Notes under the pieces: generated by a model | What the model was told of the DNA's origin: nothing | The model's input: the letters and a program-made list of their open reading frames with translations, nothing else | The model's database searches: none | Translations under genes and position numbers: made by a program | IMG/VR virus record: IMGVR_UViG_3300020045_004126 | Location: 1-40,750 of that record | Direction: 5' to 3' (one strand) | From: a virus | Lineage: Duplodnaviria > Caudoviricetes | Length of the DNA: 40,750 nucleotides | In this document: positions 258-40,750 of the stretch, piece after piece | Position numbering within the stretch: the stretch's first letter is position 1 | Layout of the letters: every line of letters begins with the position of its first letter

Positions 258-274
258 TGGCAAAGATTTAAACC

Positions 275-730
275 ATGGGGGCACCAGCAGGAAATAATTA
301 TTGGCAATTCAGGAACAAGCACGGGCGGAACCACAAGTACACCCCGGAAGCTTTTTGGGAAGAGGCTGAAAAGTATTTCGCATGGATGGCCGAAAGGACT
401 TGGGTAAAGCACGAGGCGATTAAGTCGGGTGATATGGCTGGGGTGCTGATAAAGATACCGACGTCTACACCTATGAGTCTTGAGTCGTTCTGTTTGTTTG
501 CAGATATTGACCGCCAAACGTTTTTGAATTATGAAGAGCACAAAGATTTTGTCGAAGTCTGTTCGCGTATACGCTCAGTTGTTGAGCTGCACCAGTTTGA
601 AGGCGCAACCGTTGGCGCATACAACCCGAGCATAATTGCACGCAAGCTGGGGCTCACTGATAAGACCGACGTAACTACGAACGGCGAAAGTATCAACGTT
701 ATAAACTTGGGCGGCGGTGCTAAACCTTAG
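275..730 (+). CDS. terS: Terminase small subunit (P22 gp3-like)
   Basis: MGAPAGNNYW N-terminus, FEGATVGAYNPSIIARKLGL motif, position near terL. Confidence 0.85.
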   Translation: MGAPAGNNYWQFRNKHGRNHKYTPEAFWEEAEKYFAWMAERTWVKHEAIKSGDMAGVLIKIPTSTPMSLESFCLFADIDRQTFLNYEEHKDFVEVCSRIRSVVELHQFEGATVGAYNPSIIARKLGLTDKTDVTTNGESINVINLGGGAKP

Positions 731-814: not shown

Positions 815-833
815 CAATTAAAGTATCAAAACC

Positions 834-995
834 ATGGCAACAGCAGGCAGCATAATCGAGTACGAAGGAAAAGATATATTAGTAAATAGCGATAACACCT
901 TTACCGCTTACTATTCTAAATATTCTGCCAATCTTGTTAAGGACTTCAAAAAATTAGAGTCTGCTAAAAAGCAAATAGATAAATGGCTTGCCTAA
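834..995 (+). CDS. Small hypothetical protein (53 aa, MATAGSIIEY...)
   Basis: Translated by hand; AAACCATG start right after promoter; TAATG-coupled to next gene. Confidence 0.75.
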   Translation: MATAGSIIEYEGKDILVNSDNTFTAYYSKYSANLVKDFKKLESAKKQIDKWLA

Positions 996-3128: not shown

Positions 3129-3718
3129 AAAGTCCAACCTTAAAACAATACTACGAGAAACCTACAGCCCTTTACACGGGGCTGTTTTCTGCTTTAAAAC
3201 CTAAGAACGGATTTGCAGGGCAGCTACTCAACGTAAACGCTATGCCCTATATCAATACCCGGCACTGCTTAAAACTATTGCAGCGGCCTACGTTAGAGGC
3301 AGCAAAGGAATTGTTTGATGTGTGCTACGGGTATGCCGTTAAGCCGAATATACTTGAACGCCTTAAAAGGCAGGAACCTGAGAAAATAGAAATACCTGAT
3401 AATGTATTTTGGAGCAGGCCGGCTATAGAATATTTTCAGGCTAAAGCATTTATTATTCAGGAATTTACTATCTTAGCCGAGCAGGAGCAAAAGCTATTTG
3501 CTAGCAAGTCAGAAGACGAAGAGCTTTGGCGGCGTGCAGGTAGCGATCGGCTAAAGCCTATGAGCGATATATTACCGCTGGTTAACCTGGGTAAGCTGTT
3601 TAGTGCGTATCCTTTTGACCTGGGCCGCAAGCCATACGGCGAAGTGCTTAACCTGCTCGTAGCCGTTAAAACACAAAGCGAAGTAGAGCAGGATTTTTAT
3701 AAACTTAAAAACAGTTAA
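3125..3718 (+). CDS. Hypothetical protein, possible tail assembly chaperone
   Basis: 197 aa helical ORF with TTG start preceding tail genes; function inferred from position. Confidence 0.55.
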   Translation: MKSPTLKQYYEKPTALYTGLFSALKPKNGFAGQLLNVNAMPYINTRHCLKLLQRPTLEAAKELFDVCYGYAVKPNILERLKRQEPEKIEIPDNVFWSRPAIEYFQAKAFIIQEFTILAEQEQKLFASKSEDEELWRRAGSDRLKPMSDILPLVNLGKLFSAYPFDLGRKPYGEVLNLLVAVKTQSEVEQDFYKLKNS

Positions 3719-3721
3719 ACC

Positions 3722-3838
3722 ATGATATTTGTACCTTTTGGCGTTAATATACCTGAGCAATGGCTAAGGCACGGGCTGCTATCAAACAGAGATGCAGCTT
3801 TCGTATTAAATAATATAGCGTTCCTATGCAGGACATAG
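3722..3838 (+). CDS. Small hypothetical protein (38 aa, MIFVPFGVNI...)
   Basis: AAACCATG start; fills gap between two genes. Confidence 0.55.
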   Translation: MIFVPFGVNIPEQWLRHGLLSNRDAAFVLNNIAFLCRT

Positions 3839-6535: not shown

Positions 6536-6601
6536 AAATAAGTTTAGGTTTATTACAAAAATAGTTTTATATTTGCGTATAATTTAAAAGCAAAAACCAT
6601 G
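6534..6601 (+). promoter_or_regulatory. Repeated phage promoter and leader
   Basis: TATATTTG 6568-6575; near-identical to 12493-12559. Confidence 0.85.
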
Positions 6602-9515: not shown

Positions 9516-12494
9516 ATGGCTGAGAAAATAGAAATTGCCGCGCTCGATATTGACGCAAGCCTGCTCATACAATCCACTACGGAGGTAGGTAAACAGATTA
9601 CCGACCTGCGGGCTAAAATGAAAAGCCTTCGGGACGAGGGCAAACAAAACACCGTTGAGTATACCGTTTTAGGTGCGCAGGTTAAGAACCTGTCTAAAGA
9701 CTATAACCAGCTTAACGGCGTGGTGCAAACCCGTATTACTACCGATGGCAAATTACTTTCGGTTGAGCTGGCTATGGAGAAAGCCCTTAAAAGCCAAAAT
9801 GTAACCACTAAGGGTGCGGTAGACAATAACAAAGAGCTTAGGCAGATACGCCAAAACCTTGACGCTACAACCGTATCAGGTGCGGCGGCTATTGCTAAGC
9901 TCAACGCGAAAATAAACGAGAACTCCCAATTCATAAAAGAGAACGGCGACGCTAATGAGCAGCGCATAGCGGGGATAGGGCAATACAAAGAGCAAATCCT
10001 GCAAGCCTACGCCGAGATTCAAAAAGAGAAAGCCGCTTTGCAAGCCCTTAACAAAGAGCTTATAGAAAGCAAGGAAACGCTCGACGAAAATTCAGATGCT
10101 TGGAAAGTTATAAACGTTCAGATAAATCAAAATAATATACAGATAAACAACCTTAACGACCAAATGGCGAAGTCTAAGGGGGAGTTTACAGATTTCAGTG
10201 ACGTGTTGAGCCTTGCAAACGGTGGCCTCTCGGGTTTTAAAGAGCGAGCAGAAGCGGCTGGTGGCACAGGGCCTTTACTCGGTAACGCTTTCAAAGCCAT
10301 GACTACGGGGCTTTGGGGTATGGTGAAGGCCGGACTCGCTTTTATTGCCACCCCTATAGGGCTTGCGCTTACCGCAATAGCCGTTGTTATCGCTTTGGTA
10401 GTGGGGGCGTTTAAGTTTATGGTCGCTTCTATGAACAGCACTGAAGAGGGCAGCAACAAACTTGCAAAAGCAATGGCCTACGTTACCGGCCTGCTTAATG
10501 GTTTTTGGAAAATAATAAAACCGTTGGGCGAGTTTTTGGGTAAAGTATTTATTGCCTACCTTGAAGCGGTGGGCATGGCGCTCGACGAATTAAGCGAGGG
10601 CATTGCTAAAGCCTTAGACTTTTTAGGTTTTACAGAAGCGGCTGCAGACCTGCGCGGCTTTAAAGAAGAGCTTAAGCAATCCGCTATCGCTGCCGCCGAC
10701 CTTGCCGCCGCTGAGGCAGAACTGCAAAAGATGCAACGCGAAGGGCGTAAGATACAACTTGACTACCAAAAGCAGGCAGAGAAATTAAGGCAGCTGCGCG
10801 ACGACGAAAGTAAATCGATGGGCGAACGTGTAAAAGCTAATGAACAACTGGGCGCAGTGCTTAAAGAGCAGGCTGCCGCGGAGCTTGCAATCGCTAACCA
10901 GGCGTTACGCGTTGCCGACCTGCGTATAAAATCGGAAGGGGAAACTACCGAGGCTTTGGACAAACGAGCCGAAGCCCTTACTAACATCGCGGATATACAG
11001 GAGCGCATCACCGGGCAAGAGTCCGAGCAACTGGCAAACCTAAACAGCCTGCGCAAAGAGGCTTTCGATAAAGAAAAAGAACGCCAGCAGGGCATAAGGG
11101 ATGCAAGGCAGAAAACCCTTGACGACCTTATTGAAAAACTGGGGCTTGAAAAAGAAATATACGCCCAGGCTACAGAGGGCAGGCTGCTTACTTATGAACA
11201 GGAATTTGCAAAAGCTGACGAACTATACAAGCGGCAACTTGAAATTATACAAAGCCAAAAAGCTGCTAATGATGCCGCAGCGCAAAACGATTACGCCGCC
11301 AGTAAAAAGACCGGCGCGGATAAGTTGGCACTGCAAAGGCGTTTAAACCTTAACGAACTTGAATTGACCGCCTCAAAAAATGAGGCGCTTATAGCTTTAG
11401 AAGCCACAAAACGTGAAGCAATAATAGCCGAAGCTGATTTAGAACTTGAGCATCAAAAAACGTTAGCCAAAACAAGGCTTGACGCTAACAAGTTCCTTAC
11501 TGACGAACTTGTACAACAGGAAAAAGACAGGCTCGATGCGCTTAACCAGCTTGAAGTAGATAACTTAGCACTGAAATACAATAACGGGCTTATCGCTGAG
11601 CGTGAGTACCTGGACGCGGTAAATGAGTTGTACGCCGCTAACGATAAAACGCAGGCAGAGCTTGATACGCAGCGCCGACAGGCAGAACAAGACCAGCAGC
11701 TGCTCGACCTGGAAAACCAAAAGTCGCAAAAGGCTTCGGAGTTTGAAGAGAATATGAAAATTGAGCAACTGCAGGCAGATATTAAACGCGAGCAGGAAAT
11801 AGCCAATGCCAAAAAAACAGGTGCCGATGTAAGTTTAATAGAAGACAAATTTGCTAAGGACAGAGAAGACCGGGAGAAAGCAGTACAGACTTACAAAATG
11901 GACCTTAGAGCGCAGGCACTCGGCAACCTTTCAACTATATTTGGGCAAGAAACCACAGCCGGTAAACTATTTGCGGCTGCACAGGCCACTATCGATACCT
12001 ATGTAGCAGCGAATAAAGCGTTAGCGGCATACCCGCCGCCGTTTGGTGCGATTGCAGCGGCTGCGGCTATCGCTACAGGTATAGGCAACGTTAAGAAAAT
12101 CACGTCAACTAAAACCAAATTCGAGCGTGGCGGCTTGCAGGAGGTAGGCGGCAACCGACATAGTGCCGGCGGTACGAAGTTTACCGGTTCTGACGGTACC
12201 CAGTTTGAGGCGGAGCAGGGCGAACTAATCGGCGTTATGAACAGGAACGCCGCAAAGCACTTCATGGCCTTTAATAATGCCTTCCCGGCAGGAGCAGGAA
12301 GCGCACCAAACTATTTCGCCAGTGGCGGCTTTGTAAACCGCACCGAGGCGCAGGGCGTAAACTTTGATATAGACGAACTCGCTATGAAGATTGCAGCGGC
12401 TAACGCCTCAATGCCTGCGCCGATAGTAGCCGTCAGCGACATTGCAGCGGTAACGGGGAACCTGGCGAAAGTGCAGCAAAATGCAAATTTCTAA
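9516..12494 (+). CDS. Tail tape measure protein
   Basis: 992 aa; coiled-coil/Ala-rich with central hydrophobic segment; FERGG and FASGG motifs near C-terminus. Confidence 0.9.
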   Translation: MAEKIEIAALDIDASLLIQSTTEVGKQITDLRAKMKSLRDEGKQNTVEYTVLGAQVKNLSKDYNQLNGVVQTRITTDGKLLSVELAMEKALKSQNVTTKGAVDNNKELRQIRQNLDATTVSGAAAIAKLNAKINENSQFIKENGDANEQRIAGIGQYKEQILQAYAEIQKEKAALQALNKELIESKETLDENSDAWKVINVQINQNNIQINNLNDQMAKSKGEFTDFSDVLSLANGGLSGFKERAEAAGGTGPLLGNAFKAMTTGLWGMVKAGLAFIATPIGLALTAIAVVIALVVGAFKFMVASMNSTEEGSNKLAKAMAYVTGLLNGFWKIIKPLGEFLGKVFIAYLEAVGMALDELSEGIAKALDFLGFTEAAADLRGFKEELKQSAIAAADLAAAEAELQKMQREGRKIQLDYQKQAEKLRQLRDDESKSMGERVKANEQLGAVLKEQAAAELAIANQALRVADLRIKSEGETTEALDKRAEALTNIADIQERITGQESEQLANLNSLRKEAFDKEKERQQGIRDARQKTLDDLIEKLGLEKEIYAQATEGRLLTYEQEFAKADELYKRQLEIIQSQKAANDAAAQNDYAASKKTGADKLALQRRLNLNELELTASKNEALIALEATKREAIIAEADLELEHQKTLAKTRLDANKFLTDELVQQEKDRLDALNQLEVDNLALKYNNGLIAEREYLDAVNELYAANDKTQAELDTQRRQAEQDQQLLDLENQKSQKASEFEENMKIEQLQADIKREQEIANAKKTGADVSLIEDKFAKDREDREKAVQTYKMDLRAQALGNLSTIFGQETTAGKLFAAAQATIDTYVAANKALAAYPPPFGAIAAAAAIATGIGNVKKITSTKTKFERGGLQEVGGNRHSAGGTKFTGSDGTQFEAEQGELIGVMNRNAAKHFMAFNNAFPAGAGSAPNYFASGGFVNRTEAQGVNFDIDELAMKIAAANASMPAPIVAVSDIAAVTGNLAKVQQNANF

Positions 12495-12559
12495 AAATAA
12501 TTTTTGGTTATTACAAAAATAGTTTTATATTTGCTTATAATTTAAAAGCAAAAACCATG
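12493..12559 (+). promoter_or_regulatory. Repeated phage promoter and leader
   Basis: TTTG 12503-12506, 19-nt spacer, TATATTTG 12526-12533. Confidence 0.85.
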
Positions 12560-12799
12560 TTTAAATTTATAAGTTCCATACTACGTTCTATTTTCGGCGG
12601 GTTCGATAACGATAGTTTCGACGCGGTTATTGCTGACGCTAATCTGAAGTTGGTGCAGATAAAACTAATTAAAGCAAAAATAACAGCAAAAAAAGGACTT
12701 GACTGCGAAAAAGAGTTCGCAGATTGGGCAGCCCTGAATGAGCAACTAAAGCACGTAGACGAATATCTTACTAACAGCATTAATATCTTAAAACCATGA
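12557..12799 (+). CDS. Hypothetical protein (80 aa)
   Basis: AAACCATG start after promoter. Confidence 0.75.
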   Translation: MFKFISSILRSIFGGFDNDSFDAVIADANLKLVQIKLIKAKITAKKGLDCEKEFADWAALNEQLKHVDEYLTNSINILKP

Positions 12800-24156: not shown

Positions 24157-24521
24157 CTAAAAACTTTACGCGCCAGGAGTTCGATTGTAACGACGGTACG
24201 CAGGTACCCGAGCAATACATGCCCAACTGTAAAAAGGTTGCCGAGAACTTGCAGGCCCTGAGAGACTACCTTAAAGAACCTGTTTTAATAACCGGCAGCG
24301 GTTACCGTACCCCTACGCATAATAAAGCCGTTGGCGGGGCTAAAAACAGTCAGCATCTATATGCTAACGCCGCAGATATAAACGTGCGCAGCAAAAGCCC
24401 TAAGCAGCTTGCAGCTGTTATAGAGAAACTTATTAAGGCCGGTAAAATGGAGCAGGGAGGTATAGGAATTTATAAAGGCTTTGTGCATTACGACAGGCGG
24501 GGAACTAAAGCCCGATGGTAA
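24147..24521 (+). CDS. Endolysin, peptidase M15 family
   Basis: SGYR..HN..VGG..SQH...AADI...FVHYDRRG. Confidence 0.9.
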   Translation: MQLTKNFTRQEFDCNDGTQVPEQYMPNCKKVAENLQALRDYLKEPVLITGSGYRTPTHNKAVGGAKNSQHLYANAADINVRSKSPKQLAAVIEKLIKAGKMEQGGIGIYKGFVHYDRRGTKARW

Positions 24522-24524
24522 AAT

Positions 24525-24555
24525 AAAAAAAAGCCCCGCTATTACCTGGGGCTTT
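24525..24555 (-). terminator. Intrinsic terminator, strongest on the minus strand
   Basis: AAAGCCCC/GGGGCTTT stem; A8 at 24525-24532 gives U8 on the minus strand. Confidence 0.75.
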
Positions 24556-24613
24556 CTGTTTTCTCAAATGTACTCAAACGTTAAAAGTATGGAACTGCTT
24601 ATCGTCCTGACAG
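24525..24613 (-). ncRNA. Candidate antisense sRNA (sRNA2, ~88 nt)
   Basis: Bounded by minus-strand promoter and minus-strand terminator; ends approximate. Confidence 0.6.
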
Positions 24614-24617
24614 AGTA

Positions 24618-24647
24618 CAAACATACAAAACTTTATTTTATATGCAA
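24618..24647 (-). promoter_or_regulatory. Minus-strand Bacteroidota promoter
   Basis: TTG (24647-24645), 19-nt spacer, TATGTTTG (24625-24618). Confidence 0.7.
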
Positions 24648-25112
24648 TTAAAAACATTAATTATTTTACTGCTGTGTCTTACAAGCTGCGACGTGCAAAG
24701 GCAGGTAGCTAAAACCAGTAGCAGCACCGACACGCAGGAACAACTAGAGCAGATCACACAGCGCAAGGGCGACACGGTAACCTATAAAAACGTGCTGCAT
24801 GTAAAGGATACCACTATCTACACCGTAAACAAGCAGGGAACGACACTAAGGACCGTTTACGATAGCAGCGGTAACGTTAGCCAGGTAGATTGCTTTTCGT
24901 CTGCCATAAGCGAGATATTGAAGTATTCTAAAGATATGCAGCAGGCCAATAGCACAAAGGATAAAACCGAGTCGGCAAAGTTCGACCCTACTTTTATATA
25001 CGTTGCCGGGGGCGTTATTACTGTAGTGCTGTGCTTCTGTATATTTCTGCTGTACCGCACCATAAATCAAAACAGTAAAGTTTTACAGGGTTTAGCGTCG
25101 AAGCTATTATAA
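24642..25112 (+). CDS. Putative unimolecular spanin (lipoprotein with C-terminal TM)
   Basis: Lipobox LTSC, beta-rich middle, C-terminal TM; after endolysin. Confidence 0.7.
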   Translation: MQLKTLIILLLCLTSCDVQRQVAKTSSSTDTQEQLEQITQRKGDTVTYKNVLHVKDTTIYTVNKQGTTLRTVYDSSGNVSQVDCFSSAISEILKYSKDMQQANSTKDKTESAKFDPTFIYVAGGVITVVLCFCIFLLYRTINQNSKVLQGLASKLL

Positions 25113-25118
25113 AAATAC

Positions 25119-25126
25119 TATATTTG
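25119..25126 (+). promoter_or_regulatory. -7 promoter element for sRNA1
   Basis: TATATTTG followed by C as in other phage promoters; -33 element weak. Confidence 0.65.
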
Positions 25127-25129
25127 CAC

Positions 25130-25195
25130 AAAGGCTTTCTTTACATGGTTTGAAAGGCTTTTACCCAAAAGAGATACTTCGGTATCTCTTTTTTT
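25130..25195 (+). ncRNA. Candidate trans-acting sRNA (sRNA1, ~65 nt) with anti-start-codon loop
   Basis: Stem 25130-25139/25152-25161 (one G-G mismatch), loop UUUACAUGGUUU, then terminator. Confidence 0.65.
25167..25195 (+). terminator. Intrinsic terminator (cUUCGg tetraloop)
   Basis: GAGATAC-TTCG-GTATCTC then T7. Confidence 0.9.
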
Positions 25196-25205
25196 GTGCC
25201 TATGC

Positions 25206-25489
25206 GTAAACCATGTAAACGAAGTATCTCATTTATGGTTTACGCCTAAAGCCTATATTTTACAGGGCTTCGCATCAAAATAAACCATGTAAACCATTAT
25301 TATACTAAAAGATTAATATTATATAATAATAGGGGATATACAATACATAACCCGTAATAAGCACCCGTAAATGCGTATATACGCCTATAAGAGATTAACG
25401 TTTACATGGTTTACGTTTCTGTCGTTTTAGGGCTTGATATATTGATTTGCAAATACTTGACATGTAAACCATAAAAAAGCATGGTTTAC
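25206..25489. repeat. Origin-like locus B (GTAAACCAT iterons flanking AT-rich core)
   Basis: Forward copies 25206, 25280, 25289, 25464; reverse copies 25235, 25406, 25481; homologous to locus A. Confidence 0.75.
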
Positions 25490-25504
25490 GCTGAAAATAA
25501 AGTA

Positions 25505-25544
25505 AAAAATATTTTTGGTTTTTATAAAAATAGGTTTATATTTG
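25505..25544 (+). promoter_or_regulatory. Promoter of replication/early operon
   Basis: TTTG 25514-25517, 19-nt spacer, TATATTTG 25537-25544. Confidence 0.85.
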
Positions 25545-25567
25545 CTGAAGTAAAAAACAAAGAAACC

Positions 25568-25756
25568 ATGCTAAAGTACATTGAAGTGAGTAATTGCTTA
25601 AGTTGCCCGCATTATTCGGAAGAGAATAACGTGTATCGGCACGGAACTACCGGGTACTTAAGTTTATGCGGCGCTTTAAGTCAGGAAATAGAATTTACAG
25701 ATAAAGCCGACACACCTTCGGTATACGAACGAGTAGCTAAAAAATGCCCTTTATAA
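25568..25756 (+). CDS. Small Cys-rich protein (62 aa)
   Basis: AAACCATG start; CLSCPH...C...CPL. Confidence 0.75.
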   Translation: MLKYIEVSNCLSCPHYSEENNVYRHGTTGYLSLCGALSQEIEFTDKADTPSVYERVAKKCPL

Positions 25757-25769
25757 ACTAAACACAACT

Positions 25770-26168
25770 ATGAACAACCTAAAAATACAAGAGGCAATTA
25801 CCGCCAGTGGCTTAGATAAGCCCGCTATTGCAGCACAACTATTCCCGTCTAACCAATACCCGGTTATGGCCCTTGACAGGGTTATGAAGGGCGACGGCGA
25901 CCTTAGCTCAACGCAGATAACTAAACTATCCGAATTGTCAGGCATGCCGGTTGCTGCTATATTTGGCGAAACCTGGCGCAAGGCAGAAAGTAATGGCAAG
26001 CTAACCCGTTTCACAAATGGCGAGTATACCGCAGAACTCGACCGTACCGACTGGACTACCCGAGTGTACCACAATGCCGAGCTAATCAGCGAAACGGTTA
26101 TACACAGCGGCACTATGGCGCTGAGTGTTTACCTGCAAGAGATTGAAAAGATTATAAATTCAAAATAA
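25770..26168 (+). CDS. Putative HTH DNA-binding protein
   Basis: XRE-like pattern IAAQLF...ALDRVMKG...LSSTQITKLSELSGMPV. Confidence 0.6.
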   Translation: MNNLKIQEAITASGLDKPAIAAQLFPSNQYPVMALDRVMKGDGDLSSTQITKLSELSGMPVAAIFGETWRKAESNGKLTRFTNGEYTAELDRTDWTTRVYHNAELISETVIHSGTMALSVYLQEIEKIINSK

Positions 26169-26181
26169 ATATTTTAAAACC

Positions 26182-26325
26182 ATGAGTACACACTACAGGC
26201 CAGCAATTACCGAACCTAGAACCGTTTTAAATCCTATGCGCTTTTGGGTATCTATCCAAAACAAATACTTTAAAGGCAAAACGCCTTCAGGGTATCGCTT
26301 ATTGAATAATTCAAATATTAAATAA
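26182..26325 (+). CDS. Small hypothetical protein (47 aa)
   Basis: Translated by hand; AAACCATG start. Confidence 0.65.
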   Translation: MSTHYRPAITEPRTVLNPMRFWVSIQNKYFKGKTPSGYRLLNNSNIK

Positions 26326-26328
26326 ACC

Positions 26329-26580
26329 ATGAAAAAATTAATTATTTTTGGCAGCCTACTTCTTTTAGGTTCGTGCGCTAAGTTAGATTACAGCGTGCAG
26401 CAGGAGGTTAGGGAGGAAAAACTTTGCACGTATATTTGGAAATACAACCGTTTATTGGGGGAAAACGACATAGTTTACTATCGGTTTGATACCCTTAACC
26501 TCGCTACATTCGACAGCGTACAGCAGCTAAGACTCAGGCAAGCAGATAGTTTACTCGTAAGATTTGAAAAACTTAAATAA
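26329..26580 (+). CDS. Small lipoprotein
   Basis: MKK, hydrophobic stretch, LGSC lipobox. Confidence 0.75.
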   Translation: MKKLIIFGSLLLLGSCAKLDYSVQQEVREEKLCTYIWKYNRLLGENDIVYYRFDTLNLATFDSVQQLRLRQADSLLVRFEKLK

Positions 26581-26602
26581 TTTTAAACACTTAAATAAAA
26601 CC

Positions 26603-27238
26603 ATGAAAGTAAAAGTAACAATTGACCTGGCAGACAAGGCACAGGCTGCAGCATTTCAAAACCTTGTAAGCGCACAGGCGGCAGCGGCACAGCAGAAACC
26701 TATGTTTTTAGAAAAGGGCTACGGTAAAGGCGGATTAATACCGACCGACCACACCTTTACCGCAGAGCGAGTTTTATCAAAAGAATTAGAGGAGCAGTAT
26801 AAAGCGGACATAGCGCAGTACGCCGAGGCTAACCCACCCCCTACTGACGAAGATGTGGTAACCCTTATGCAACCGGCTACAAAGAAAACCCGTGCGCCAC
26901 GTAAAACGCAAGCAGCCGAAGAGCAGCCTGCCGATACCGCCGCAGCTGAAAACGTTGAGGTGAACGAACCCGAAGAGGTTACAGACGCAGCAACGAATAT
27001 TTTTGCTGAGAAACTGGCCGCTAAAAAAGAACTAGCCGAAGAGGTTGTGCATGATGAAAAACCTAATAACCCGGTAGAATACACCGAGCAGGAAGTGCGC
27101 CAGCTTGTAGCTGATAAGGTTAATGCGCACCGCCCGGTAATTGTTGCAAAGTTAAACGCTTTAGGCAGCAAAAGCGTAACACTACTGCCTAAAGAAAAAT
27201 ATGGCGAGTTAGTTGCCTTCTTAAACGGGTTAGACTAA
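26603..27238 (+). CDS. Hypothetical protein of APSE-type replication module
   Basis: AAACCATG start; Ala/Glu-rich linker and C-terminal helical domain; TAATG-coupled to nuclease. Confidence 0.75.
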   Translation: MKVKVTIDLADKAQAAAFQNLVSAQAAAAQQKPMFLEKGYGKGGLIPTDHTFTAERVLSKELEEQYKADIAQYAEANPPPTDEDVVTLMQPATKKTRAPRKTQAAEEQPADTAAAENVEVNEPEEVTDAATNIFAEKLAAKKELAEEVVHDEKPNNPVEYTEQEVRQLVADKVNAHRPVIVAKLNALGSKSVTLLPKEKYGELVAFLNGLD

Positions 27239-29562: not shown

Positions 29563-29581
29563 AATTTGTAAATTTCAAACC

Positions 29582-31525
29582 ATGAAACTTCACATTGACA
29601 TTGAAACGTTCTCAAGCGAGGACATTAGAAACGTTGGCGCCTATAAGTACTTCGAGTCTCCCGACTTTGAGATATTAATGGTAGCCTATGCGTTTGACGA
29701 CGGCCCCGTGCAAATCGTAGACCTTGCAGCGGGTGAGGTATTACCCGAGTTTTTTATCTACTCCCTAACCGACCCGCTTGTAGAGAAGTATGCCCATAAC
29801 GCTAACTTCGAGCGTAACGCTTTCAAGGCGTACGGCTATGAAACGGATATATCAGAATGGCGATGCACGGCAATTAAATCCCTTTATTGCGGTTTACCTC
29901 AATCCCTGGATATGGTAAGTAAAGCCCTGAAGCTGGAAGAGAAAGGAAAATTATCAACAGGTAAAGCACTGATACGATATTTTTCTGTACCTTGTAAGCC
30001 CTCAAAAGCTAATGGAATGCGCAGTAGAAACTTTTATTTTCACGACTCCGTAAAATGGGAAGAGTTTAAACGCTACTGTATTGCCGACGTTGAAGCCGAA
30101 AGGGAAATATGTTCACGCCTTGCATACTTTGAAATACCTGATATTGAGCAAAAGGCTTACACCCTTGACCAGCAGATAAACGATCGCGGTGTGCGCATTG
30201 ATACGCAACTGGCAAGTATAGCGGTAGCAACTGACAAAAGATTTAGCGAAGAGCTAACAGTACGCATAAAGGAATTGACCGCCCTACAGAACCCAAACAG
30301 CCCGGCGCAGTTAAAGAAGTGGTTAAGCGATGCAACAGGCACAGACATAACGAGCCTTACTAAAGCAGCAGTAAACGACCTGCTTTCTGAAACAACTGAC
30401 GGGGCTGTTTTAGAGGTTCTCGAGGGCAGGCAAATGCTTTCCAAAACTTCAATAAAGAAGTATTTAAAAATGATGGACTGCGTTTGCGCAGACGGCAGGG
30501 CGCGCGGCCTGTTCCAGTTTTACGGAGCGAACCGCACAGGCCGCTGGGCAGGCAGGTTGATACAGTTGCAGAACCTGACGCGTAACCACATGAGTAATTT
30601 AGACGAGGTGCGAACAGTACTTTCTTTGAATGAATATAAAAAGTTTTTGTATTTAGTAGACAGCGTGCCGCAAGCATTGTCAGAACTTGTGCGCACGGCT
30701 TTAATACCTTCAGAGGGTAAGACCTTTGCCGTGTCAGATTTCAGTGCCATAGAGGCCCGTGTATTATCGTGGCTTGCTAATGAAAAGTGGCGGCTTGACG
30801 TGTTCAACACGCACGGCAAAATATATGAAGCGTCTGCTGCAATGATGTTCGGCATACCACTTGAAAGTATTGGTAAAGGGTCTGAATACAGGCAGCGGGG
30901 TAAAGTGGCAGAGCTTGCTTTGGGCTATCAGGGCGGCAAGGGTGCTATGGCAACGATGGACAGCGAAAAGAAAATACCTGAACACGAATATCAAATGATA
31001 GTTGATAAGTGGCGCAGGGCAAACCCTGAGATTGTGAAGCTATGGAAAAAGGTAAACGATTATGCAATTCATACTTTAGAAAATCCCGGCAAACGTTTTA
31101 AGCTCGATAAATTAACATTCGAGTATTCGCAAAAGGCGTTACAAATTGGCCTACCTTCGGGGCGTAAATTATTTTATTGGGACGCTAAACTCGTACCCGG
31201 TAAATTCGGCGGTAGCTCTATAGCTTATATGGGTATGGAGCAAACTAAAAAGGTATGGGGGCGTATCGACACCTACGGCGGCAAGCTGGTAGAGAATATC
31301 GTGCAGGCCATATCCCGCGATTTACTTTCTGAGTGTATGCTGCGATTAGACCAGCGAGGGGCTAAAATAGTAATGCACATACATGACGAGGTTGTTGTAG
31401 AGATTGGGGGCGTATTTTTAACCCTTGAATTTATAGAGCGAGAAATGGGCGAAGTGCCAAGCTGGGCAGCCGGGTTGCCACTTAACGCAGATGGATATGT
31501 TACTAACTTTTATAAAAAAGAATAA
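29582..31525 (+). CDS. polA: Family A DNA polymerase with 3'-5' exonuclease
   Basis: HIDIETFS, DFSAIEARV (motif A), RQRGKVAELALGY (motif B), HIHDEV (motif C). Confidence 0.95.
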   Translation: MKLHIDIETFSSEDIRNVGAYKYFESPDFEILMVAYAFDDGPVQIVDLAAGEVLPEFFIYSLTDPLVEKYAHNANFERNAFKAYGYETDISEWRCTAIKSLYCGLPQSLDMVSKALKLEEKGKLSTGKALIRYFSVPCKPSKANGMRSRNFYFHDSVKWEEFKRYCIADVEAEREICSRLAYFEIPDIEQKAYTLDQQINDRGVRIDTQLASIAVATDKRFSEELTVRIKELTALQNPNSPAQLKKWLSDATGTDITSLTKAAVNDLLSETTDGAVLEVLEGRQMLSKTSIKKYLKMMDCVCADGRARGLFQFYGANRTGRWAGRLIQLQNLTRNHMSNLDEVRTVLSLNEYKKFLYLVDSVPQALSELVRTALIPSEGKTFAVSDFSAIEARVLSWLANEKWRLDVFNTHGKIYEASAAMMFGIPLESIGKGSEYRQRGKVAELALGYQGGKGAMATMDSEKKIPEHEYQMIVDKWRRANPEIVKLWKKVNDYAIHTLENPGKRFKLDKLTFEYSQKALQIGLPSGRKLFYWDAKLVPGKFGGSSIAYMGMEQTKKVWGRIDTYGGKLVENIVQAISRDLLSECMLRLDQRGAKIVMHIHDEVVVEIGGVFLTLEFIEREMGEVPSWAAGLPLNADGYVTNFYKKE

Positions 31526-32262
31526 TGAAACACTCTGTACACTTAGGCGATTGCCTCGAGGTTATGAAAAGTATAACGGCCGGTAGTATAGATATGATAC
31601 TTTGTGATTTGCCTTATGGTACTACTCAAAATAAATGGGATAGCGTTATTCCTTTCGCCCTTTTGTGGGAGCAGTACGAACGGGTTATTAAAGATAATGG
31701 CGCCATAGTTTTGACGGCTGCACAGCCTTTCACTTCTGCTTTAATTATGAGTAATACTAAATTGTATAAATACAATTGGGTGTGGGTAAAAACACAAGCT
31801 AGCGGGCATCTAAATGCGTGGAGACAACCAATGCGGAGTACGGAGGACATTATCGTTTTTTATAAAAAACAGTGTCTATATAAGCCAATACTTGTCGATA
31901 AGCCCGTAAAAAATATAAGACCGGTATGTAGACAAAGTGGCACAAAAAGTGAAAACTATGGGAGCTATAAAGTAGGCGTAGGCTTTGACCGTAAATGCCC
32001 CCGGGATAAATCTATGCCTGATACATTACTAAAATTTGCAAACGACCAAAACGGCATGCACCCAACCCAAAAGCCTGTGGCCTTATTCGAGTACTTAATT
32101 AAAACATATACAAACGAAGGCGATACCGTTCTCGATAACTGCGCCGGCTCAGGAACTACAGGAGTAGCCTGTGAAAATACTGGCCGTAACTCTATACTTA
32201 TAGAGAAAGAGCAGAAGTATTACGATATTATTTTAAACCGCCTTTACCCTGATTTATTTTAA
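31525..32262 (+). CDS. DNA N6-adenine/N4-cytosine methyltransferase (beta class)
   Basis: DLPY, HPTQKP, VLDNCAGSGTT. Confidence 0.93.
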   Translation: MKHSVHLGDCLEVMKSITAGSIDMILCDLPYGTTQNKWDSVIPFALLWEQYERVIKDNGAIVLTAAQPFTSALIMSNTKLYKYNWVWVKTQASGHLNAWRQPMRSTEDIIVFYKKQCLYKPILVDKPVKNIRPVCRQSGTKSENYGSYKVGVGFDRKCPRDKSMPDTLLKFANDQNGMHPTQKPVALFEYLIKTYTNEGDTVLDNCAGSGTTGVACENTGRNSILIEKEQKYYDIILNRLYPDLF

Positions 32263-32265
32263 ACC

Positions 32266-34665
32266 ATGACAGATAAAATAGACATAGCAACCGGCTTGCG
32301 GTACAACTCGCCAAGCTGGAAAAATAAAAAGGTTACGTGGCCTGAGCTTGTGCAGATGCTAAGCCAAACGGTAAAGACGAACGAAACGCTTAAGGAGTTC
32401 TTAGGTGCAACCCGTGAGGAGCAACTACGTATCAAAGACGTAGGCGGTTTTGTGGGGGGCTACTTAAGAGGCGGCAAGCGTAAGCACGACACCGTTGTAC
32501 ACCGCCAACTACTTACGCTCGATATAGATTTCGCCCATAAGGATTTTTGGCAGGACTTTACGCTTGCAATGGACTGCGCTGCCGTGTTGCACGCCACGCA
32601 TAAACATTGCGAGGCTTCGCCCAGGTACCGACTTATCATACCGCTTAACCGTGAATGTACGCCCGACGAATACGTAGCAGCAGGCCGTAAAGTTGCAGGG
32701 GATTTAGGTATTGACCTTTTCGATAATACTACCTTCGAACCTAACCGCTTAATGTTTTGGCCTTCTACTCCTAAAGATATGGAGTACTATTTCAAAACGC
32801 AGGCAGGCCCTGCGGTAGACGTTGACGAGGTGCTGGCCACTTACGCCGACTGGAAGGACAGCAGCCTGTGGCCTACCTCACAAACTAAGTTCGACCAGGT
32901 ACGAGCGCACGCCGATAAGCAGGAAGACCCCGAAACTAAAAAAGGTATCGTAGGCGCATTCTGTAGGGCGTACACCATGACTGAGGCAATTACTAAATTC
33001 CTTACAGAAGAGTACCTGCCTACTGATATAGAGAACCGCTACACGTATTCTAAAAGTACAACGGCTGCGGGGCTTATTGTCTACGACGACAAATTCGCAT
33101 TCTCGCACCACGGTACAGACCCGTGCAGCGGCAAGCTGTCAAACGCTTTCGACCTGGTACGCGTCCACCGCTTCGGGCATTTAGACGAAGGGCTTACCAG
33201 CGGCAAGGCTACCAAAAGCTACAAGGCTATGGACGACTTCGCCCGTGAGGACAAGGCCGTGCGCAAGCTAATTGCTTCCGATACCCTTAGCGATGCGCGC
33301 TACGACTTTAACGAGGATATGCCCGAGGACTTAAGCGAAGCAGACCCCGAGGCTGAGGACATTACTTGGATGCAGGACTTAGAAATCGACGGGCGTAAAA
33401 ATTACCTGTCGAGTGCTACAAACCTCAACCTGATATTTGCCAACGACCACAGGCTTAAAAAGTTGTTCAGGTTAAATGACTTTGATAGTAAGCGCTATGT
33501 GTTTAATAACCTACCATGGCGTAAAGTGCCAAAGCCGGAACCCGTACGCAATGTAGACTACTCTGGTATTCGCAACTACATCGAAAGTATTTACGGTATT
33601 ACCGGCGCGCAAAAGATTGAGGACAGTATAAGCCTGGAATTTGAAAAAAACCACTTCCACCCAGTAGGGGACTATTTAAGGGGGTTAACGTGGGATGGGG
33701 TGCCGCGTATCGATACGCTGCTTATAAACCTATTCGGGGCAGAAGATACCCAGTACACCCGCGAGGCTATGCGTAAATGGCTGGTAGGCGGGGTAGCCCG
33801 TGTGATGCAGCCGGGCATTAAGTTTGAGCTTGTGCTGGTATTAGTTGGTGCGCAGATACAGGGGGCGGGTAAAAGTTCGTTCCTGAAGGCGTTAGGCCGC
33901 CAATGGTTTAGCGATAGCTTCAGCACGCTACAGGGCAAAGAGTCTTTCGAGCAATTGCAAGGCGCATGGATCATTGAAATGGCAGAACTCGCCGGGCTAA
34001 AGAACGCCGAGGTAGAAGGCATAAGGCACTTCATATCTAAACAAGAGGACTCGTTCAGGCCAGCGTATGGCAGGACAACCGAGACATACCCACGCCAAAG
34101 CATATTTGGCGGCACCACAAACCGGCGCGACTTTCTTAAAGACCCTGTAGGTAACCGCCGCTTTATGCCGATTGATACCAAACCCGTAAAGCTGGTAGAT
34201 AACCCTGAGTTATGGGCGTTCATAAATGACGAGGCTACTATTAACCAGGTATGGGCAGAAGCCGTAACGCTGTACAAAGCCAAAGAGCCGCTATACTTAA
34301 GCCATGACGCCGAGGCAATCGCAGCAGTGGAGCAGATGAAGCACAGCGAAACTGACGAGCGCAAGGGCATAATCGAGCAGTACCTTAACACGCCGCTGCC
34401 TAAAGACTGGGATAGTAAAGATGAATACGACCGCAGGGCGTATTTTGCTGACCCGCTTGTAAAGGGTACTGAAGCACGGGAGTACGTTTGCACTGCTGAG
34501 ATATGGTGCGAATGTTTAGGCAAAAAGCGTGAAGACCTCGACCCCTACAAATCCAGGGAGCTGAATACGATTGTAAGGAATATAGAAGGCTGGGAGTTTA
34601 TCAATTCGACCCGTAACTTTAGCCTTTACGGCAAACAGAAATATTATCAAAAATCTAATAAATAA
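32266..34665 (+). CDS. Primase-helicase (N-terminal primase-like domain plus VirE/VapE SF3 ATPase)
   Basis: LTLDID, THKH...PRYRL; Walker A QGAGKS; IIEMAEL; GTTN; GNRRF. Confidence 0.9.
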   Translation: MTDKIDIATGLRYNSPSWKNKKVTWPELVQMLSQTVKTNETLKEFLGATREEQLRIKDVGGFVGGYLRGGKRKHDTVVHRQLLTLDIDFAHKDFWQDFTLAMDCAAVLHATHKHCEASPRYRLIIPLNRECTPDEYVAAGRKVAGDLGIDLFDNTTFEPNRLMFWPSTPKDMEYYFKTQAGPAVDVDEVLATYADWKDSSLWPTSQTKFDQVRAHADKQEDPETKKGIVGAFCRAYTMTEAITKFLTEEYLPTDIENRYTYSKSTTAAGLIVYDDKFAFSHHGTDPCSGKLSNAFDLVRVHRFGHLDEGLTSGKATKSYKAMDDFAREDKAVRKLIASDTLSDARYDFNEDMPEDLSEADPEAEDITWMQDLEIDGRKNYLSSATNLNLIFANDHRLKKLFRLNDFDSKRYVFNNLPWRKVPKPEPVRNVDYSGIRNYIESIYGITGAQKIEDSISLEFEKNHFHPVGDYLRGLTWDGVPRIDTLLINLFGAEDTQYTREAMRKWLVGGVARVMQPGIKFELVLVLVGAQIQGAGKSSFLKALGRQWFSDSFSTLQGKESFEQLQGAWIIEMAELAGLKNAEVEGIRHFISKQEDSFRPAYGRTTETYPRQSIFGGTTNRRDFLKDPVGNRRFMPIDTKPVKLVDNPELWAFINDEATINQVWAEAVTLYKAKEPLYLSHDAEAIAAVEQMKHSETDERKGIIEQYLNTPLPKDWDSKDEYDRRAYFADPLVKGTEAREYVCTAEIWCECLGKKREDLDPYKSRELNTIVRNIEGWEFINSTRNFSLYGKQKYYQKSNK

Positions 34666-34670
34666 AAACC

Positions 34671-35039
34671 ATGTTAAAATTTAAACCTTTAAATATTACC
34701 GAAGAGGACATACGCAATCAACAAGACCCTGAAGTATTGAGAGATTGGCAAGAGGCTATGCTTATAGAATTAGCCGAAGTTAAAACAAGAGTAGCCTCTA
34801 TGAAAGCCAGAGCAACGGAAGGGAACTACGCCCCTCCACGATACTATAACTCACAGCAAACCCTTCAAAGAGCCATAGGATTAATGATTGAAATAGTTAA
34901 AAGGCAACTATCAAAATTTAATTCCGCCAACCCTAAAAGACACATAAACCATTACTTTGTAGAAGCAGCACGGGCGGTACTTTCTCCTGAAGTATTTCAG
35001 CAGATAAACCAACAAGCGGAAAAAAATTTCAATGAGTAA
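34671..35039 (+). CDS. Hypothetical helical protein
   Basis: AAACCATG start, 122 aa. Confidence 0.75.
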   Translation: MLKFKPLNITEEDIRNQQDPEVLRDWQEAMLIELAEVKTRVASMKARATEGNYAPPRYYNSQQTLQRAIGLMIEIVKRQLSKFNSANPKRHINHYFVEAARAVLSPEVFQQINQQAEKNFNE

Positions 35040-35197: not shown

Positions 35198-35366
35198 CGG
35201 CCTGTGCCTGTTACCCGGCGGGGTAGTTGTCTTCGTGGAGACGAAGCGTAAAGGCAAAACGCCGACAAAGATACAAACTTTAGTACATAACAAATTGCGA
35301 CGGCTGGGCTTCCGCGTTGAAGTGGCAGACACCGCCGAGCAGATTAAAAATATATTTAAACCATGA
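35082..35366 (+). CDS. VRR-NUC nuclease (Holliday junction resolvase-like)
   Basis: SEK, GLPD, FVETK, Q...H..L..LGF motifs. Confidence 0.9.
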   Translation: MSSTVSEKVVWNSLKRTVEDGLNGWLIKLPTIHITGLPDGLCLLPGGVVVFVETKRKGKTPTKIQTLVHNKLRRLGFRVEVADTAEQIKNIFKP

Positions 35367-35797: not shown

Positions 35798-37185
35798 TGA
35801 ACGAGTCAAACCTGCACGGCTACCAGCATACAGCTGTGAGCCACATAATGGAAAATACGCACGGGGCGCTGCTGCTTGAAATGGGCTTAGGCAAAACAGT
35901 ATCGACCCTTACCGCTATCAACAAACTTATTTATGAAGAGCTGGAAATAAACGCCGTGCTTATCATAGCCCCTAAGCGGGTTGCTGAAAGTGTGTGGAGT
36001 TCTGAGATTGGCAAGTGGGAACACCTGAAGCACCTGCGCATATCAAAGATACTGGGCAACGAGAAGCAGCGAAAGGCTGCCCTGCGGCAACCGGCAGACG
36101 TGTACACCATAAGCCGCGATAACGTAGCATGGCTTTGTTCACAATTTGGCGGCACACGCACCCCGTTTGATATGCTTGTCATTGACGAGCTGAGCAGCTT
36201 CAAAAATCCCCAGTCTGTACGCTTCAAAGCATTAAAGGCGGTGCAGCCGTCCTTTAGCCGTGTTGTCGGCCTTACAGGTACACCCGCGCCTAATGGCCTT
36301 ATAGACTTGTGGAGCCAAATATATTTACTTGACCGGGGTGCAAGGCTGGGTAAGTTTATAACTACCTACCGTGAAACGTACTTTAGGCCCGATAAGCGTA
36401 ACGGCTCGATAACATACAGCTATAAACTTGAAGAGTCGGGGGAGCAGCAAATCTATGATAAGATAGGCGACGTATGTATGAGTATGAAGGCTAAAGACTA
36501 TTTAGACTTACCCGAGCGTATTAATAACATTGTGCGTATCGATATGCCTGCGGATCTGCAGAAGCAATACGACGACTTTGAAAAGGAACAGGTTATGAAC
36601 CTGGTAAGTGCTGAGGGCGACGACAAAGAAATAAGCGCACTGAATGCCGCAGCGCTATCAAACAAGCTATTGCAGTTTGCCAATGGGGCCATGTACGACG
36701 AGAACAAAGTTTACCACGAGGTACACGATTTAAAGCTGCTGGCTTTAGAGGAACTAATCGAAGCGGCCAACGGCCACCCGGTGCTTATCGCATGGACATA
36801 CAGGCACGACCGGGATAGAATGCTCGAGAAGCTAAAGAAGTACAAGCCGCAGGAGCTTAAAACCGATCAGGATATAAACGATTGGAACGCTGGTAAAATA
36901 CAGGTTATGATGATGCACCCCGCCTCAGGCGGGCATGGCCTTAACTTGCAGGCAGGTGGTAATATAATTGTATGGTTTGGGCAGACGTGGAGCTTAGAAC
37001 TCGAGCAGCAATTCAATGCAAGGCTTGACCGACAGGGGCAGAAAAACGCCGTTGTAGTCAACAAGCTGGCCGTCGTTGGCACTATGGACGAGGACGTGCT
37101 GAAAGCGCAGGAGACTAAAGGCGATAACCAAAACCGACTTATGGATGCCGTAAAGGCTAAAATTAATAAATATTTAAAACCATGA
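35797..37185 (+). CDS. SNF2-family helicase
   Basis: EMGLGKT, VIDELS, LTGTP, GHGLNLQ, QFNARLDRQGQ. Confidence 0.93.
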   Translation: MNESNLHGYQHTAVSHIMENTHGALLLEMGLGKTVSTLTAINKLIYEELEINAVLIIAPKRVAESVWSSEIGKWEHLKHLRISKILGNEKQRKAALRQPADVYTISRDNVAWLCSQFGGTRTPFDMLVIDELSSFKNPQSVRFKALKAVQPSFSRVVGLTGTPAPNGLIDLWSQIYLLDRGARLGKFITTYRETYFRPDKRNGSITYSYKLEESGEQQIYDKIGDVCMSMKAKDYLDLPERINNIVRIDMPADLQKQYDDFEKEQVMNLVSAEGDDKEISALNAAALSNKLLQFANGAMYDENKVYHEVHDLKLLALEELIEAANGHPVLIAWTYRHDRDRMLEKLKKYKPQELKTDQDINDWNAGKIQVMMMHPASGGHGLNLQAGGNIIVWFGQTWSLELEQQFNARLDRQGQKNAVVVNKLAVVGTMDEDVLKAQETKGDNQNRLMDAVKAKINKYLKP

Positions 37186-38152: not shown

Positions 38153-38178
38153 CTGATATAATTAAAAACAAAATAACC

Positions 38179-38349
38179 ATGTCAAGAAGATTATCAAACT
38201 TAAAAGAAGGAGAAAGTTTTTACTTAGCTACTTCAGAAAACGAACTTACGTTTTTAGAAAAAACAGCAAATGGCAATACTATATTTTACCGTTATCAAGA
38301 CGCGGACGGCAAAACAGTGGCTACAAAAAACGATTATTTTATAATGTAA
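38179..38349 (+). CDS. Small hypothetical protein (56 aa, MSRRLSNLKE...)
   Basis: Translated by hand; AACCATG start after promoter. Confidence 0.75.
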   Translation: MSRRLSNLKEGESFYLATSENELTFLEKTANGNTIFYRYQDADGKTVATKNDYFIM

Positions 38350-38352
38350 ACC

Positions 38353-38736
38353 ATGGAAACAATTATTAAAGCATTTCTTATAACCGCTTTCGTTGGCCTG
38401 ATAATAGGTGTAGCGGTTATCCCGCCCAGGTTCGTAGTTGTGAACAAAGCGGGGTACTTCAACCCCTTTAAGAAAAGGGTTTTTGCCTTCAAAGTAGTAA
38501 AAGAGGGCAGGCTGTACTATCTATATTTTACAGGGGATAACTGGCTTTCGCAGGTACGTTACACCCGATTAGGTATTTTTAGCGTTAATGATAACGTAGT
38601 AAGCTATAACACTTCCGGCTTCATAACTGAAGCAGGGGCGCACCGTGAGGCGTTGCAGTTCGATAATATCAGGTCAGTACTTAAAGACCTTAACCGCATA
38701 GAAAATAAAGTAATCCAGTTAAACAGTAAGAAATAA
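38353..38736 (+). CDS. Membrane-anchored hypothetical protein
   Basis: AAACCATG start; N-terminal TM. Confidence 0.75.
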   Translation: METIIKAFLITAFVGLIIGVAVIPPRFVVVNKAGYFNPFKKRVFAFKVVKEGRLYYLYFTGDNWLSQVRYTRLGIFSVNDNVVSYNTSGFITEAGAHREALQFDNIRSVLKDLNRIENKVIQLNSKK

Positions 38737-39945: not shown

Positions 39946-40487
39946 AAGCAAACTATAAAGGCAGCGAGGTTGATGTTATCCGCTTCAACTTCGCATCGAA
40001 AATGGCGGATATTAATTTAAAAGGCACTGATACTACAGTGCCTTTTTTATCACTTACGGATATAAAAGCAGAGCAGGGCGAACCGTTTTACGTACCTATC
40101 GGAAGGCAGGACAGGGGCAAAAAATACGTGTGGGCTCAGGATAAAATGACGGGTATTTATTACGAAATTATATCAATTAATATGCAAAAACGGGCCGTAA
40201 GGTTGCAGGCTCCAGGCTTAAAAAAGCAGGAATATTTCGCTGTAAACAGTCCTGCCCAAGTAGTAAGACCCCTCAATGATGTACTTTTTTTAAGCAGAAA
40301 AGCGGAGCCGAGTGTTAAAATTGAGGGGGCTTCAAAGTTTTCCAGTCAGTATAAACTTACAAGAATAGTATTGGCGGGGTACGCGGTGCACTTTTCAGGG
40401 CAGCAAATCATAGCTAAAAACAGCTTGCCTGAAAAAAAGGGAACTTTAACAGTAGTGTACCAAAGAATTTTCGGTAAACGTACGTAA
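39942..40487 (+). CDS. Hypothetical protein
   Basis: ATG 39942; 181 aa. Confidence 0.7.
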   Translation: MKANYKGSEVDVIRFNFASKMADINLKGTDTTVPFLSLTDIKAEQGEPFYVPIGRQDRGKKYVWAQDKMTGIYYEIISINMQKRAVRLQAPGLKKQEYFAVNSPAQVVRPLNDVLFLSRKAEPSVKIEGASKFSSQYKLTRIVLAGYAVHFSGQQIIAKNSLPEKKGTLTVVYQRIFGKRT

Positions 40488-40750
40488 ACGTATATGGTTT
40501 ACGCTGTAACCCCTGTAAACACTGGGCATTTCATGCCTGTAAACCATGTAAACGATAAAAACCCCAAACTTTTGAAAACAGTGATTTGCCAAAAAACGTA
40601 AACCATGTAAACCATGTAAACGTACTATGGTTTACCGGGAAACCCCTGTAAACACTGGGCTTCACGTCAAAATAAACCATGTAAACCATACTATTACTAA
40701 AAGATTATTTATATAATAATAAGGGAATATATACACATAAATGCACCCGT
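40474..40750. repeat. Origin-like locus A, left part
   Basis: GTAAACCAT at 40539, 40598, 40607, 40681; ATGGTTTAC at 40494, 40627; 20-mer AACCCCTGTAAACACTGGGC at 40508 and 40641. Confidence 0.75.
40688..40750 (+). repeat. Terminal 63-nt overlap, copy 2
   Basis: Identical to 1-63. Confidence 0.95.

Follow-up and report, generated by a model that had tools for sequence, protein, structure and literature searches.

In Cluster K mycobacteriophages, a short exact repeat, the start-associated sequence (SAS), is found in one orientation at the starts of 11-19 non-structural genes, and four of these phages carry a single opposite-strand copy that is independent of any gene start; as to the binder, the authors did not decide between an RNA and a protein (PMC3203893). 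The phage genome analysed here shows a similar arrangement, in that an exact repeat, referred to as the tag in the following, likewise occurs in one orientation at the starts of non-structural genes (compare PMC3203893). The two repeats differ in their make-up, since SAS is the 13-bp GGGATAGGAGCCC with a Shine-Dalgarno core, located 3-7 bp before the start (PMC3203893), whereas the tag AAACCATG comprises 7-8 nt, includes the AUG and contains no Shine-Dalgarno sequence. A second difference concerns the opposite-strand copy, which in our case resides in a unit of promoter, hairpin and terminator, whereas the main text of the SAS paper names no antisense RNA (PMC3203893). From our point of view, this unit rather probably represents a phage sRNA that acts in trans and would mask the AUG of each tagged gene.

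Small phage RNAs that pair with their own transcripts through short exposed stretches are known from c4 of P1/P7 (PMC5320573), which partly occludes ribosome-binding sites, and from the CI RNA of P4 (PMC4825925). As described in these sources, c4 consists of three stem-loops with two pairing loops and is processed by RNase P (PMC5320573), and the CI RNA acts on two sites of its own operon (PMC4825925). The unit reported here, in contrast, has two hairpins and no Rfam match, and its loop would address 17 dispersed starts. In terms of breadth, the RegA factor of T4 is similar, with some 30 phage mRNAs being repressed at the AUG by this single factor; RegA is, however, a protein, and its sites have no exact common sequence (PMC3014915). 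Repression by start-codon pairing in Bacteroidota, which lack Shine-Dalgarno sequences, has been described for GibS of Bacteroides thetaiotaomicron; this RNA is, however, host-encoded, about 145 nt long, uses an unstructured seed of 30-50 nt and has two direct targets without a reported common tag (PMC7366714). SviR of PLE (bioRxiv 2022.04.08.487710) and PreS/LPR1 of lambda (bioRxiv 2024.10.31.621285) are trans-acting phage or satellite sRNAs with several targets, as postulated here, but their targets are another phage's or host genes (for SviR also its own operons), and the accessible text of both reports mentions no start tag (bioRxiv 2022.04.08.487710, 2024.10.31.621285). The proposed RNA would act like c4 or GibS with the breadth of RegA and is a member of none of these systems. 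In the full-text collection searched, which includes a small share of subscription papers, we found no published phage sRNA that is aimed at a shared start tag.

The stretch of DNA under study, referred to as the window, comprises the 40,750 nt of IMGVR_UViG_3300020045_004126, a complete virus record with direct terminal repeats. Its + strand encodes terminase, head and tail proteins, an endolysin, an exonuclease, an SSB, a family A DNA polymerase, a primase-helicase and a helicase, and many of its small ORFs carry no annotation. Since TAnnTTTG boxes, the -7 element of Bacteroidota (PMC7366714), stand at the head of its operons, and since portal, primase and the first conserved early ORF find their best cultured matches in phages of Croceibacter, Bacteroides and Elizabethkingia, the host likely belongs to the Bacteroidota. 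A DNA search against cultured phages returned the endolysin as sole match (4 records), a GTDB scan for the host gave one weak unrelated match only, and no integrase or repressor was matched among the 57 ORFs searched with PHROGs and the 34 searched with Pfam.

The candidate unit (25119-25195, + strand) begins with a TAnnTTTG box that reads TATATTTG (25119..25126) and is invariant in all five copies known to us; no TTG box was found at a spacing of 17-24 nt upstream of it. The predicted small RNA of about 66 nt (25130..25195, both ends estimated from the sequence) would start with hairpin 1 (25130..25161), in which arms at 25130-25139 and 25152-25161 form 9 pairs and one G-G mismatch around the 12-nt loop TTTACATGGTTT (25140-25151), a stem that comprises 8-11 pairs in all five copies. 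Within this loop lies the putative seed CAUGGUUU (25144..25151). The unit ends with an intrinsic terminator (25167..25195), composed of arms at 25167-25177 and 25182-25192, a TTCG loop and seven T at 25189-25195, the loop being UUCG, UACG or UGCG across the copies. The folding z-score of 25110-25200 is -4.65, and that of hairpin 1 by itself only -1.24. No reading frame is conserved in the unit, as the frame that opens with the loop ATG closes after 2 codons in the window and after 7 codons in the relative L207, and extends for 45 codons through the terminator in three other relatives. The anatomy given in a preliminary description, namely the TATATTTG box, the hairpin at 25130-25161, the 12-nt loop, the UUCG terminator and the absence of an ORF, is exact in the window, with the qualification that frames of 2, 7 or 45 codons occur among the copies. 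Searches with Rfam gave no match at gathering score over the whole window, and two weak unrelated matches only at E up to 1 in 24400-25600.

The same description regarded the unit as the end of the late/lysis operon. This can hold at most for the last lysis gene or for read-through, because a terminator-like hairpin (24530-24555) lies 3' of the endolysin gene. On the minus strand of the same interval (24525-24632), a TATGTTTG box faces back toward this hairpin, the left side of which bears a run of A, so that a second small RNA of about 85 nt is possible between the endolysin and the lipoprotein gene (fold z -1.76). The gene at 24642-25112, at the end of the lysis block, has no database match, and its product combines an N-terminal lipoprotein signal with a C-terminal hydrophobic stretch, a layout which we take to be that of a one-piece spanin; its start is tagged in L207 alone.

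AAACC precedes 16 of the 56 curated starts and AACC precedes 17, while AAACC stands before none of the 478 other + strand ATGs outside the repeat loci. The full word AAACCATG occurs 25 times in the window (1.4 expected), and its 22 matches on the + strand comprise 16 that start ORFs of at least 38 aa and 6 in origin-like repeats; as tags, they are found only on the sense strand and in register with the start codon. The earlier claim that the loop contains the exact complement of the start context of 16 genes is thus confirmed, and a 17th start (38179) carries the 7-mer AACCATG. All tags lie on the + strand. In the first part of the genome they mark the terminase small subunit gene terS (270..277), a 53-aa ORF that is the first gene behind a TATATTTG box (829..836), a 38-aa ORF (3717..3724), two inserted genes of 132 aa (6594..6601) and 80 aa (12552..12559), each with its own promoter box, and a 56-aa ORF (12791..12798). 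Behind the unit, they mark the first gene of the replication operon (25563..25570), ORFs of 47 aa (26177..26184) and 83 aa (26324..26331), a 211-aa ORF ahead of the exonuclease (26598..26605), the DNA polymerase (29577..29584), the primase-helicase with its VapE-like domain (32261..32268), a 122-aa ORF (34666..34673), a 144-aa ORF that overlaps the last codons of the upstream nuclease gene (35358..35365), an SPFH-domain gene (37177..37184), the 56-aa ORF behind a promoter box that carries the 7-mer (38175..38181) and a 127-aa ORF (38348..38355).

With gene classes assigned by ourselves, the tag is present on 15 of 34 non-virion genes but on only one of 22 virion and lysis genes (Fisher p = 0.002); head, tail and lysis genes hence lack it with the exception of terS, as had been noted before, and terS is tagged in all three complete genomes. 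A tagged gene comes first behind 7 of 11 TAnnTTTG boxes, a number that is left from 16 intergenic boxes after exclusion of the unit's own box and of four that lie 26-27 nt before another box. The replication operon contains 21 starts, of which 11 carry the tag and another 6 form a TAATG overlap with the stop of the preceding gene. It can further be noted that a common promoter with AAAATAG(T/G)TT upstream of the -7 box occurs at 793, 2570, 6568, 12526, 25537 and 38145, and that this promoter heads small genes inserted in the virion block, which vary among relatives while leader and tag are constant.

Could the tag simply represent a favourable initiation context for a host that does without Shine-Dalgarno sequences, its mirror in the loop being due to chance? 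Ribosome profiling of Flavobacterium johnsoniae identified A at -3, -6, -12 and -13 as determinants, and the tag does provide the A at -3; in the same data, C is virtually without effect (PMC6847099). Moreover, the capsid and tail genes of the same phage do without AAACC. When one crude start caller was applied to all genomes, the tag was called at 11 of 51 starts in the window and 23 of 127 in its clade, as opposed to 3 of 750 in distant kin (27 loci) and none of 387 in a portal-related group (30 loci). Because of these last two counts, which refer to phage loci and not to a host genome, the AAACC tag, judged by sequence comparison, is private to the clade and not a general Bacteroidota context, and we give the initiation-context explanation hardly any credence.

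Among relatives, AACC is retained at 23 of 29 corresponding starts and lost at 6, a comparison from which the primase pair of L250 was dropped, the gene being untagged there and coupled to a tagged upstream gene. Differences from the relatives amount to 9 of 116 positions at -4 to -1 and to 148 of 435 at -20 to -6, although these ungapped and non-independent counts overstate the contrast.

Four further copies of the unit were found, in L001, L206, L207 and L246. A search with the terminator pattern returned three viral loci, all of them known copies, and eight metagenome loci, of which two were known contigs, one was new (L246) and five were discarded as unrelated terminators; a profile search with the lipoprotein returned the same three relatives. 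The exact loop-plus-stem pattern was found in no viral contig, and a covariance model of the RNA, run over 84 sources, gave the window's own unit as its only significant match. The alignment of the five copies shows no change in the promoter box, in CAUGGUU and in most of the terminator, so that the loop seed is indeed conserved in relatives, whereas the 3' arm of hairpin 1 varies and differs from the window in all four relatives. This bears on two pairings of 12 nt which had been reported for the polymerase and primase starts: they are real in the window, but rely on 3'-arm bases that differ in the four relatives. In L001, an inserted extra gene separates the unit from the lysis lipoprotein gene, and a TATATTTG box precedes both the insertion and the unit, from which it follows that the box stays with the hairpin.

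Stem changes among the copies mostly preserve pairs through G-U, the terminator loop remains UNCG, and the + strand of hairpin 1 folds better than the - strand in all four copies tested, which together point to a + strand RNA whose pairing is favoured by the sequence changes. The seed is predicted to be mostly unpaired in four of the five copies, and its first two bases are predicted to be paired in L206. Taken alone, hairpin 1 is weak (z -1.24, -0.42, -1.10 and -2.26 in the four copies tested), and its covariation, with one compensatory pair, does not exceed that of shuffled alignments (90 of 500 shuffles as high). A reading of the loop as a minus-strand decoy was rejected, since folding is poorer on that strand and none of its TAnnTTTG boxes is directed at the loop.

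The unit adjoins a locus with GTAAACCAT repeats in both orientations (25201..25500), which have a 12-mer in common with the loop and whose layout suggests a replication origin. A single such locus had been described next to the unit; the adjacency stands, but the window contains two, the second of which (40470..40750) goes on at 63-200 across the terminal repeat. Both loci are about 73% alike, with one lying ahead of each genome half, and both are kept in two complete relatives. The locus behind the unit is family-wide, since 36 of 62 kin loci hold a conserved ORF behind it, most with GTAAACAAT-type repeats in front. For this 132-aa ORF (25770-26168), which in most cases follows the origin-like locus at a short distance, searches of PHROGs, Pfam and PDB returned no match and gave no support to a by-eye label as HTH protein; it is a candidate repeat binder and 57% identical in L207, whose repeats differ.

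Given this neighbourhood, the loop could be a stray origin repeat that came to lie between the last lysis gene and its terminator, with the tags having a separate origin in leader copying or in crossover points of gene swaps. Apart from the adjacency and the weakness of hairpin 1, such a history draws on the match between loop and repeat core, which is 12/12 in the window, L001 and L246 and in the window better than the match of the loop alone to any start, and the origin-like repeats hold the 8-mer of the seed in four of the five copies. Some tagged leaders have also been copied, those at 6599 and 12557 being identical over -20 to -6, and tagged slots hold non-homologous genes in relatives. 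On the other hand, out of 136 pairs of tagged leaders only 3 agree at 11 or more of 15 upstream bases (median 6), and a stray repeat would also not account for a promoter box that is invariant and survives the insertion of a gene upstream. The relatives L207 and L206 also speak against it. In L207, none of the 12 repeat words of the origin-like locus reads CAT (7 of 10 in the window), so that all repeats have changed, but loop and tags have not: its 14.6 kb contain AACCATG four times, each time at a start, and the mirror once, in the loop, where a rebuilt 11-pair stem displays UUGCAUGGUU. In L206, the loop base 5' of the seed has changed while the repeats have not, which breaks the 12-mer match but keeps the 7-mer. 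The loop thus follows the other origin repeats, as an origin iteron should, in the window, L001 and L246, and fails to do so in L207 and L206.

Because of these two cases, the conserved element appears to be the 7-mer that faces the start codon, independent of the origin repeats in one relative; L207 is a single, 39%-complete fragment with four tags, one of which has a leader identical to the window's, and its origin module may have been swapped recently. The preliminary description had itself offered the stray iteron as its alternative, which is weakened by L207 and kept alive by the 12/12 match of the window loop. We regard it as unlikely, but to be taken seriously. The simplest history would be that the seed arose as an origin repeat and was retained for a new use.

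Two further explanations depend on the same repeats. The RNA could be real but act on the origin-like loci or on read-through transcripts, as a primer or in copy-number control, for which its perfect 12-nt complement to the repeats of both loci and its position next to the first would be suitable. The L207 loop, however, no longer matches the adjacent repeats (the fragment covers this one of the two loci), the longer match is lost in L206, and repeat RNA is predicted to be bound only weakly (-2.8 kcal/mol), which makes such an activity very improbable. Alternatively, tag, loop and repeats, which have AAACCATG in common in the window, could be DNA sites of one phage protein that binds the origin and represses promoter-proximal genes. 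The 7 of 11 promoter boxes with a tagged gene close behind would agree with this, but the tags are confined to the sense strand and to the register of the start codon, 10 of the 17 tagged genes are not the first behind a promoter box, and in L207 the repeats were switched while the tags were not. We likewise attach very little weight to this explanation.

Lastly, the tag could be the site of a translational repressor protein of the phage, with the mirror in the loop being incidental or a relic. RegA, whose sites on about 30 repressed mRNAs overlap the AUG (PMC3014915), is an example of such a protein, and the many small unannotated ORFs of the genome could encode one. Then again, the RegA sites show no clear sequence conservation in the cited description (PMC3014915), whereas the tag is exact, and no RNA-binding family was matched among 57 ORFs (PHROGs) and 34 ORFs (Pfam), most small ORFs being unannotated. 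A protein would also leave unexplained why the only mirror copy of L207 is located in an open loop that is flanked by a promoter box on one side and a terminator on the other. We therefore consider a protein repressor improbable.

If the unit acts as an sRNA, as we favour, the following mechanism can be imagined. The loop seed CAUGGUU(U) of the approximately 66-nt RNA would pair with the tag (A)AACCAUG at 17 starts of the phage's own genes; the duplex would span -4 to +3 and thereby include the initiator codon, so that translation of all tagged genes would be prevented from starting. Repression is the presumed sign because the initiator codon would be occupied, as with GibS on its Bacteroides targets. 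In the replication operon, shut-off would extend to coupled genes through the tagged and the TAATG-overlapped starts. Production of the RNA, pairing in trans, repressive sign and spread to coupled genes are all steps that we infer. The predicted net binding in the window has a median of -7.0 kcal/mol for tagged and -3.0 kcal/mol for untagged starts. With a seed of only 7-8 nt, binding in L207 is predicted at only -1.8 to -4.3 kcal/mol when the stem must open, and according to these models a helper protein or a loop-only contact may hence be needed for pairing. The idea that one RNA silences a whole tagged class, as put forward initially, gains from the private tag, the seed kept in five of five copies and the retention of loop and tag in L207, and loses its extended 12-nt pairings, which are not conserved.

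Concerning its role, the RNA would most likely be a slowly accumulating brake on genes served by host-type promoters, and could thereby either act as a timer of lytic growth or maintain a quiet state. With a host-type box on the unit, it would be made from the start of infection and build up, the hairpin behind the endolysin gene would limit late read-through into the unit, and the seed may have been recruited from an origin repeat, which in the window it still matches 12/12. The initially proposed early-to-late or dormancy switch is not established, given that no integrase or repressor was matched among the ORFs scanned and that terS in all three complete genomes and the lysis lipoprotein gene in L207 are tagged. 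For the latter reason, a class of genes behind host-type promoters appears to fit the set of tags better than a class of early genes. More tentatively, one could speculate that the tag is a private address on the first gene behind most host-type promoters, terminase included, which is read by one sRNA with a seed recruited from the origin repeats. This would allow the phage to switch off genes across its whole genome, or to persist quietly in a carrier state with immunity against sister phages, without a repressor protein; we consider this extended scenario possible, but doubtful.

Within the clade, seed and tag are both invariant, and co-variation between loop and tag can be sought in more distant kin. 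In L261 (primase 60%), a complete 53-kb record, the same slot holds an ORF-free unit in which an open U-rich stretch is placed between a promoter-like box and a terminator. The 9-mer ATCAAAACA occurs seven times on the coding strand of this record, five of them in leaders, and once in mirrored form, in the same-slot unit. Matches of at least 9 nt are found at 5 of 80 of its own starts compared to 11 of 802 starts of kin (p = 0.011); at 7-8 nt, the U-rich seed also matches many foreign A-rich leaders. As the model of the window RNA does not match L261, its unit would be an analogue or a very distant homologue, and the co-variation is only suggestive. Just before this unit, at about 1375-1575, L261 has a second TATATTTG-headed stretch of about 190 nt without an ORF of at least 38 aa.

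L253, which shares gene order and slot, has neither the tag nor the seed of the window. Besides a TATATTGG box and a terminator, its slot (about 9630-9725) contains an A-rich stretch that includes a mini frame of three codons, and from its sequence looks like a start-site mimic rather than a mirror. In L262/L263, AAACAAG(C) stands before 5-6 starts, and the sole intergenic mirror found sits in origin-like repeats. No further pair of tag and mirror turned up when L253, L255-L317, L207 and the window were screened for tags (loci below 8 kb skipped), nor in a screen of 13 promoter-terminator units (four from the clade, that of L261 and eight whose best word occurs at no more than 4 starts), both screens covering mostly partial genomes.

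Overall, the phage antisense RNAs known so far act on one or two sites, and RegA, which silences dozens of starts, is a protein. If one RNA indeed reached an entire class of genes via a start-codon tag, this would represent a new regulatory layout, and one that suits hosts which leave the region before the AUG free of Shine-Dalgarno pairing. It would further provide a testable answer to a question that has been open since 2011, namely what binds the start-associated sequences of phages. L207 constitutes a natural experiment by which pairing and iteron can be told apart as ideas, and the case also suggests a possible origin for the seed of a small RNA. If it works, a 66-nt RNA and a 7-nt tag would make a compact multi-gene switch for Bacteroidota, which could readily be tested in Flavobacterium johnsoniae.
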